Positions 46,863 to 64,000 of a stretch of 64,000 bases of DNA are shown here, in pieces. Each line of letters begins with the position of its first letter. Positions within the stretch are counted from its first letter, which is position 1. The notes beneath the pieces were generated by a model, which did not search any database, had not been told where the DNA came from, and saw nothing but the letters and a program-made list of their open reading frames with translations. The DNA lies in contig CAWECG010000003.1 in NCBI GenBank assembly GCA_963807605.1, positions 992,001 through 1,056,000 on the forward strand, given 5' to 3'. This DNA comes from Candidatus Bathyarchaeota archaeon (GTDB lineage: Archaea; Thermoproteota; Bathyarchaeia; 40CM-2-53-6; RBG-13-38-9). A program made the position numbers and the translations under genes.

Positions 46863-47001
46863 TGGTAGCGGGGGGTAGATTCGAACTACCGGTTGAGCCC
46901 GATTTCTCGAGTATCTCAGGGTCTCTCAGTTCATGTCATATGAGCCCTGCGGGTTAAACCTGGTTGGGCTTCTTCATTCGAAGAACCTACCCCACCCCGC
47001 T
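46863..47001 (-). tRNA. initiator tRNA-Met(CAT) with three introns (46964-46986, 46923-46938, 46892-46912)
   Basis: Spliced 79 nt: AGCGGGGTGGGGTAGCCAGGTTTAACCCGCAGGGCTCATAACCCTGAGATCGGTAGTTCGAATCTACCCCCCGCTACCA; A1-U72 pair, GGG/CCC in anticodon stem, encoded CCA. Confidence 0.93.
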
Positions 47002-47242
47002 ATTCTCTGGACTTGTCAGGGAATTTCAAAGATAAATGTTTTGCCTAAAAAATAGGTTGTGCCCCGCTGAGATTTTTCTCTAGGCACTATTGCTCACAGT
47101 CTCGTTAGCAACGCTTATAAGTTATAATATGAGGTTTAGTGCCAAGCTGGTTTATAGTGGACGGAAGCAGGATCCGGTTCTGTACGGTTGACTGTTACTT
47201 GTTCTTATAACTGGCCGAAACGAAAAGAGGTGAAAGTGGATA

Positions 47243-54032: not shown

Positions 54033-54153
54033 GGGCCGGTAGCTCAGCTTGGTTACGTTGCTGGAAGCAACATCGAGGAGCACACGGCTGATAAGCAGAT
54101 TCGATTACGAAGAAACCGTGGGGTCATGGGTTCAAATCCCACCCGGCCCACCA
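54033..54153 (+). tRNA. tRNA-Ile(GAT) with two introns (54056-54077 at 21/22; 54094-54114 at 37/38)
   Basis: Spliced 78 nt: GGGCCGGTAGCTCAGCTTGGTTAGAGCACACGGCTGATAACCGTGGGGTCATGGGTTCAAATCCCACCCGGCCCACCA. Confidence 0.88.
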
Positions 54154-60277: not shown

Positions 60278-61778
<1,501 letters not shown>

Positions 61779-61949
61779 TAGAAAAGCCATTATTTGGGCT
61801 GAGGGGCATAAGGAAAGACTGCGAACCACTGTTGATGCAGCCTCCAAACTTTTTGGAGGCGAAGGGTTGAGTGGGCTTCCAAGGCTCACAGTGACGACCA
61901 TGCATAGGCCTTCAACGCGAAATCGATGTGGGTTCCTGAGCAAACTTGG

Positions 61950-64000
<2,051 letters not shown>

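Follow-up and report, generated by a model that had tools for sequence, protein, structure and literature searches.

Three BHB Introns in the Only Initiator tRNA-Met Gene Found in a Bathyarchaeia Genome

Results

The Initiator tRNA Locus

The window, that is, the whole stretch of 64,000 nt that was analyzed, belongs to the genome of an uncultured Bathyarchaeia archaeon (i.e., not a member of Thermoproteales), whose assembly comprises 2.65 Mb in five contigs with 47% G+C and is 94% complete. An initiator tRNA-Met(CAU) gene of 139 nt, including the encoded CCA, is located in an intergenic gap between ORFs, on the minus strand of the window (47001 to 46863). Its A1 is at 47001 and the CCA occupies 46865–46863, with the last A at 46863. 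The initial annotation had given exactly these coordinates but had left the strand unstated. A plus-strand reading, conceivable with the self-complementary acceptor ends (AGCGGGG...CCCCGCTA), was rejected: the cloverleaf, the CAU anticodon, the CCA, and the upstream promoter block are found on the minus strand only.

The gene consists of four exons (15, 25, 10, and 29 nt) and three introns (23, 16, and 21 nt), all on the minus strand. Exon 1 (46987–47001) holds positions 1–15 of the tRNA, that is, the 5′ strand of the acceptor stem, U8, G9, the 5′ strand of the D stem (GGGT), A14, and G15. It is followed by intron 1 (46964–46986) at site 15/16 and by exon 2 (46939–46963; positions 16–37), which provides the rest of the D arm, the 5′ strand of the anticodon stem, and the loop CUCAUA with the CAU. 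Intron 2 (46923–46938) is placed at the canonical 37/38 site. Exon 3 (46913–46922; positions 38–47) contains A38, the 3′ strand of the anticodon stem (CCCTG), and AGAT of the variable loop, and is separated by intron 3 (46892–46912; site 47/48) from exon 4 (46863–46891). The latter includes positions 48–73 and the CCA, with C48, the T arm (GGTAG-TTCGAAT-CTACC), the acceptor strand CCCCGCT, and A73.

When the exons are joined, a 79-nt RNA is obtained (a tRNA of 76 nt plus the CCA), which forms a regular cloverleaf with CAU in a 7-nt loop and is called as tRNA-Met(CAT) by ARAGORN. Its D loop has three extra bases. The spliced molecule shows A1:U72 (A at 47001 with T72 of CCCCGCT) and the pairs G29:C41, G30:C40, and G31:C39 (CAGGG/CCCTG once intron 2 is removed), which are the features given for archaeal initiator tRNAs (PMC6412873). 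By these marks the product is an archaeal initiator tRNA-Met, for which methionylation, binding of aIF2, and use at start codons are predicted. The identification first proposed for the locus, that is, an initiator tRNA-Met with BHB introns at 15/16, 37/38, and 47/48, is thus borne out by the initiator marks, by the splice motifs described below, and by the ARAGORN call on the spliced product.

In its unspliced form, the gene is invisible to standard tools. ARAGORN called zero tRNAs in the window, and the Rfam tRNA model gave no match at the locus, even at E ≤ 10; the Rfam matches within the window are limited to a tRNA at 54033–54150 and the rRNA operon. With its intron option, ARAGORN mis-called the initiator gene as a tRNA-Ile with one 60-nt intron, a call that was rejected. 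A second initiator-type gene was searched for with patterns of the acceptor end and the anticodon arm and with a 16-mer of exon 2, and none was found in the 94% complete assembly. The 16-mer (AACCCGCAGGGCTCAT) has a single occurrence in the genome. Therefore, another initiator gene that could supply the mature tRNA, which the initial annotation had named as evidence against its reading, did not appear in this assembly.

Upstream of the gene, a BRE/TATA-like block (GGCAAAACATTTATCTT; 47029–47045, minus strand) is predicted as a promoter, with its TTTAT core 31–35 nt upstream of position 1. Among the nine orthologues of the family, conservation upstream of the gene is limited to this block, whose position fits the promoter range of the tRNA genes of Thermofilum pendens (−30 to −49; PMC3218864). 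We infer a promoter function for it. A second exact copy of AGCGGGG, the 5′ strand of the acceptor stem, is found on the minus strand at 47068–47062, 67 nt upstream of the gene. It was considered as a leader decoy and rejected, since the BRE/TATA-like block is situated between this copy and the gene and the family shows no conservation of the copy, which is seen as either a chance occurrence or a relic.

BHB Motifs at the Intron Boundaries

The BHB motif is defined by a central helix of 4 bp (H) and two 3-nt bulges on opposite strands, and its classes are named hBHBh′ and hBH (PMC7714728). Checked base by base, all three introns have four out of four H pairs between two 3-nt bulges, and all three possess at least one flanking helix (h or h′) of at least 2 bp. 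Every helix and bulge that had been named for them in the initial annotation was found, at each of the three introns.

In detail, intron 1 is of type hBHBh′. Its H is formed by G10–T13 (GGGT) with GCCC near the 3′ end of the intron and is flanked by AG↓G and AA↓C as bulges (arrows mark the predicted cuts), the inner hairpin TTCTTC/GAAGAA has 6 bp (h′), and the outer helix has 2 bp (h). Intron 2 places TGAG opposite C32–A35 (CTCA) in its H, between the bulges TA↓T and AG↓A. Its outer helix is provided by the 5-bp anticodon stem, the inner helix has just 1 bp, and the motif is thus only of type hBH. Intron 3, again of type hBHBh′, has its H between T42–G45 (TGAG) and CTCA, with the bulges AT↓A and AC↓C, an inner hairpin of 5 bp (CTCGA-GAAA-TCGGG; h′) with a GAAA loop, and an outer helix of 2 bp. 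When the introns were shuffled, an equal or better motif arose once in 20,000 cases for intron 1, 71 times in 20,000 for intron 2, and never in 20,000 for intron 3.

Copies of introns 1 and 3 were not found elsewhere in the genome when up to three mismatches were allowed, which leaves the idea of transposed introns without a match. The hairpin of intron 1 (46964–46986) contains TTCGAAT, that is, the T-loop heptamer of the tRNA itself (46872–46878). This looks like a coincidence, because the loop differs among the relatives.

Conservation and Covariation of the Introns

Orthologues of the gene were gathered across the order, and the boundaries of their introns were determined by spliced alignment to the mature sequence, with no use of the motif. 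Eight other species of the same family carry the same three introns, with 88–92% identity over the whole gene length. All exons, exon 1 included, are invariant among the nine family orthologues. The helices are nearly invariant within the family as well, and the three-BHB structure is 97.8% paired in comparison with 33–55% when the partners are slid.

The lack of a call at the locus by standard finders such as ARAGORN and Rfam could be explained by a pseudogene in decay, or by an artefact of the assembly with the look of an interrupted tRNA. The probability of such an origin is close to negligible, since the exons show no variation, independent assemblies of the eight other species repeat the architecture, a conserved promoter-like block and an encoded CCA are present, and no other initiator-type gene was found in the genome.

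Across the order, a full 4-bp H together with a flanking helix is present in 102 of the 127 introns from 49 distinct orthologues, as opposed to 3.4% of the shuffled-intron controls. The covariation of the inner helix is strong in the 47/48 intron, where H is paired in all 39 distinct sequences and inner pairs 1–5 are paired in 35–39 of them, with 3–7 standard pair types per position. In the 15/16 intron, H and inner pairs 1–5 are paired in 15 out of 15 distinct sequences; inner pair 5 switches between TA and CG from one family to another, whereas the hairpin loop varies freely, and the support from compensatory changes is moderate. In the 37/38 intron of the relatives, H is often relaxed (three of the four pairs).

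These data also bear on the possibility that one or more inserts are retained in the mature RNA as expansion segments, so that, for instance, the D loop would be enlarged by the 15/16 hairpin, or the 47/48 hairpin would serve as a long variable arm. The 47/48 insert is indeed situated at the site of the long variable arm of class II tRNAs and forms a stable hairpin, but all 39 distinct inserts keep the exact BHB geometry (a 4-bp H that includes positions 42–43 of the anticodon stem, two 3-nt bulges, and an inner helix that covaries with free choice of sequence), which would be needless for a variable arm. Moreover, orthologues that lack the 47/48 insert combine the same exons with a plain variable loop of 5 nt. 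Initiator tRNAs are of class I. Retention of the inserts is, on the whole, very improbable, and they are better understood as introns.

The exon junctions are fixed independently of the BHB rule by an intron-free orthologue of a related family (L098), in which the mature sequence is contiguous. This orthologue is a full-length Rfam tRNA (RF00005; 64 bits) and has the same mature sequence as the host, with the exception of compensated T-stem pairs and one D-loop base. The clean 79-nt initiator, which according to the initial annotation results from cutting after the second base of each bulge, matches this contiguous sequence. Between families, the T stem is compensated in the forms GGTAG/CTACC, GGTGG/CCACC, GGACG/CGTCC, and GGATG/CATCC.

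Intron Variation across the Order

The same initiator gene shows zero to four introns across the order, distributed over approximately seven sites (4/5, 15/16, 20–23, 37/38, 47/48, 57–60, and ∼71/72). No intron or a single one is found in family f8 and in most of f10. Two introns are present in f6 (37/38 and 47/48) and in part of f2 (47/48 and T loop). Three introns occur in the family of the host, either at 15/16, 37/38, and 47/48 or at 37/38, 47/48, and the T loop; in part of f2 (15/16, 47/48, and T loop); in f3 (D loop, 47/48, and T loop); and in genus g22 (37/38, T loop, and ∼71/72). Finally, four introns are found in f5 (L016, L017, L019, L022, and L106), f7 (L093 and L095), and genome G024 (L104), at sites 4/5, 20–23 of the D arm, 37/38, and either 47/48 or the T loop.

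The H helix of the 4/5 intron makes use of two bases of the leader (GTAG/CTGC in L016). The leaders of the four-intron forms repeat the acceptor 5′ strand, as AGCGGGG or GGCGGGGG, as recognized by eye. In f5 and f7, the alignment had placed an insert of 38–93 nt at 6/7; this placement was rejected, as the insert reads better as the leader plus an intron of 17–22 nt at 4/5. Four genes of g22, within f2 (L084, L086, L088, and L090), have an insert of ∼30 nt in the 3′ acceptor strand (CCCCGC...TACCA; ∼71/72) and none at 47/48. In the same four genes, complementarity between the leader (ggagacgt.cggag) and the trailer (ctccgcgacgtctcc) points to a possible processing stem.

The series of zero to four introns on one mature tRNA is a compact natural data set for the gain and loss of BHB introns and for the limits of motif relaxation. 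A tentative reading, which we regard as possible rather than probable, is that BHB introns are in active turnover in Bathyarchaeia, with repeated recent gains and losses and with a mechanism that would still be inserting BHB-competent DNA into an essential single-copy gene.

Splicing Enzymes

Two genes of the EndA family and an RtcB gene are present in the genome. The catalytic alpha EndA (G000:C4:303386-303622; 188 aa) has the motif GIDHAPF and aligns end to end with crenarchaeal catalytic chains, namely those of S. tokodaii (2cv8), A. pernix (3p1z_B), and P. aerophilum (2zyz_B). The beta EndA (G000:C3:661701-661937; 175 aa) includes both EndA domains without the His at the aligned catalytic position, where PDB chain 3ajv_B has Ala. 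In the alignment of the alpha EndA with 3p1z_B, IPKPKP stands against VEKPRG, and thus K41 corresponds to K44 and K43 to R46. The two A. pernix residues are part of the Crenarchaea-specific loop (CSL), which confers broad substrate specificity (PMC3241643).

The likeness to the alpha2beta2 EndA of A. pernix (PMC3241643; PDB 3p1z) extends from end to end (E 3e-37) and includes the CSL residues, the His motif GIDHAPF, and the existence of a second, His-less EndA paralogue. The beta EndA is full-length here (175 aa), closer to the EndA-like chain of M. kandleri (5x89) than to the short one of P. aerophilum. The pair fits an alpha2beta2 enzyme of the broad-specificity type, for which assembly and cleavage of relaxed motifs are predicted. 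The broad-specificity splicing endonuclease that had been presumed from the DNA of the locus therefore finds its counterpart in the alpha/beta pair, with K41 and K43 aligned to the CSL residues.

Probable Maturation of the Precursor

It is highly probable that the only initiator gene found in this genome yields its mature tRNA through the removal of three BHB introns, by EndA cleavage and RtcB joining. Transcription would probably start from the BRE/TATA-like element ∼33 nt upstream, giving a precursor of at least 139 nt in which the CCA is already encoded. The precursor would fold locally into three BHBs, of which the first borrows the 5′ strand of the D stem, the second the anticodon loop, and the third the bases where anticodon stem and variable loop meet. 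In each of them, four 3′-proximal bases of the intron would pair with the exon bases just upstream of the 5′ splice site (G10–T13, C32–A35, and T42–G45, respectively). An alpha2beta2-type EndA may then cut each bulge after its second base, and the exons would be joined by RtcB to the 76-nt tRNA plus CCA. Only after splicing would the D stem be free to form and the anticodon stem reach its full length.

The requirement of splicing for the cloverleaf, as initially proposed, agrees with the geometry of the motifs. BHB 1 takes positions 10–13 of the D stem and BHB 3 takes positions 42–45; a precursor folded for splicing thus cannot form the local arms of the cloverleaf, and vice versa. In nearest-neighbor folding, the BHB conformers are not favored, and the same model under-predicts the mature cloverleaf too.

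The initial annotation had also raised a possibly ordered splicing that could limit the supply of initiator tRNA. In a regulated or obligatory form of this scheme, the BHBs would be in competition both among themselves and with the cloverleaf, so that the introns would have to leave in a fixed order. There are features in the gene that would suit such a design, since BHB 1 occupies the 5′ strand of the D stem, the H of BHB 3 uses T42 and G43, which also take part in the outer two pairs of the anticodon stem closing BHB 2, and the gene is apparently single copy. However, the three BHBs can form together in one conformer when the anticodon stem is reduced to its three G:C pairs, with a computed energy of −41.0 kcal/mol in comparison with −23.6 kcal/mol for the cloverleaf with looped-out introns. 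In addition, the base-pair probabilities of ViennaRNA give no order, as the H helices receive 0.01–0.06 in every intermediate; the order is not rankable in this way because the model under-predicts the arms of the mature tRNA itself (D stem 0.14 and T arm 0.58). The relatives, with zero to four introns in other combinations and the same mature tRNA, argue against a tuned regulatory design. Consequently, a splicing order that limits the initiator supply is unlikely.

The duplicated CTCA/TGAG words had been considered as a source of alternative pairings. The exon CTCA (32–35) is complementary to the exon TGAG (42–45), and the matching words of the introns likewise, but the TGAG of intron 2 is not conserved, being found in only two of the 26 distinct 37/38 introns of the relatives, and the alternative pairing is therefore not conserved either. 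The duplication arises because the exon sequences are fixed.

In this way, one precursor apparently has to be cut and ligated three separate times before translation can be initiated in the host. With a three-intron initiator, EndA and RtcB would be indispensable beyond their usual roles.

tRNA Genes of the Host Genome

The tRNA genes of the genome were anchored by acceptor stem and T arm, and 26 of the 27 genes so obtained are 90–163 nt long, whereas one has 76 nt. By this excess of length, almost every tRNA gene in the genome is interrupted. The census is based on gene length only; removal of BHBs without the intron option of ARAGORN recovers the initiator and is ambiguous for about half of the genes. 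The initiator, with 136 nt, is long but no outlier among the 27. Triple introns, regarded as rare in the initial annotation, are hence not exceptional in the host genome, as judged from the 26 over-long genes. Examples of long tRNA genes are found at C3:1084785-1084947, C3:770912-771065, and C4:65453-65595, and nearly all of the 27 encode CCA.

Rfam detects just 19 tRNAs genome-wide, so that a good number of tRNA genes escape standard tools. The elongator tRNA-Met and the tRNA-Ile2(CAU) were not located in the genome with simple patterns of the anticodon arm; presumably, their genes either carry interruptions elsewhere or are missing from the assembly.

Comparison with Other Archaea

In Thermoproteales, three introns are the stated maximum for pre-tRNAs (Sugahara et al.), with tRNA-Glu(UUC) of P. 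calidifontis and tRNA-Pro(UGG) of P. islandicum as examples (PMC4390854, PMC4033280, and PMC3218864). Those archaea are hyperthermophilic, whereas the present genes come from mesophile-type Bathyarchaeia MAGs and the tRNA concerned is the initiator. Furthermore, the introns of Thermoproteales are shared and apparently transposed, whereas those of the gene studied here, as far as introns 1 and 3 were scanned, have no other copies in the genome.

In Asgard archaea, the majority of tRNA genes contain inserts, as many as five in a single gene; inserts of the D arm escape standard annotation, and gains have occurred repeatedly at BHB-competent boundaries (bioRxiv 10.64898/2026.10.13.758758). The Bathyarchaeia genome is alike in that most of its tRNA genes are interrupted and missed by standard annotation, although Asgard archaea form a different phylum, and the preprint makes no mention of Bathyarchaeia or of the initiator tRNA (bioRxiv 10.64898/2026.10.13.758758).

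Disrupted initiator genes have been described in two other archaea. The iMet gene of Thermofilum pendens is permuted, with its junction at 59/60 and a canonical intron, and that of Nanoarchaeum equitans is split at 37/38 (PMC3218864). Similarly to these, the Bathyarchaeia initiator is apparently a single-copy gene, presumably essential, whose maturation would proceed wholly via BHB processing; unlike them, it is colinear with three cis introns, neither permuted nor split. The 59/60 junction of T. pendens is also the site of the T-loop intron in relatives of the present gene.

A literature search found no published description of tRNA introns in Bathyarchaeota/Bathyarchaeia. Multi-intron tRNAs and disrupted initiator genes are already known in archaea, and the present gene is an expected variant of them. 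As for annotation, neither ARAGORN nor Rfam sees the gene, and surveys of Bathyarchaeia with tools of this kind would therefore report the initiator as missing, so that estimates of the tRNA complement and of completeness could be distorted.

Other Features of the Window and the Genome

The tRNA-Ile(GAU) gene of the window (54033–54150, plus strand; 118 nt) has inserts of ∼25 nt in the D loop and ∼21 nt at 37/38, and is still detected by Rfam with 43.5 bits. The rRNA operon is located at 60278–64000 on the plus strand, with the 16S at 60278–61778 and the 23S from 61942 to beyond the end of the window; the spacer between them has 163 nt and is without a spacer tRNA. A long dinucleotide repeat, (TG)n/(GT)n, came up at G000:C1:520604-520818 when the genome was scanned with a loose pattern.
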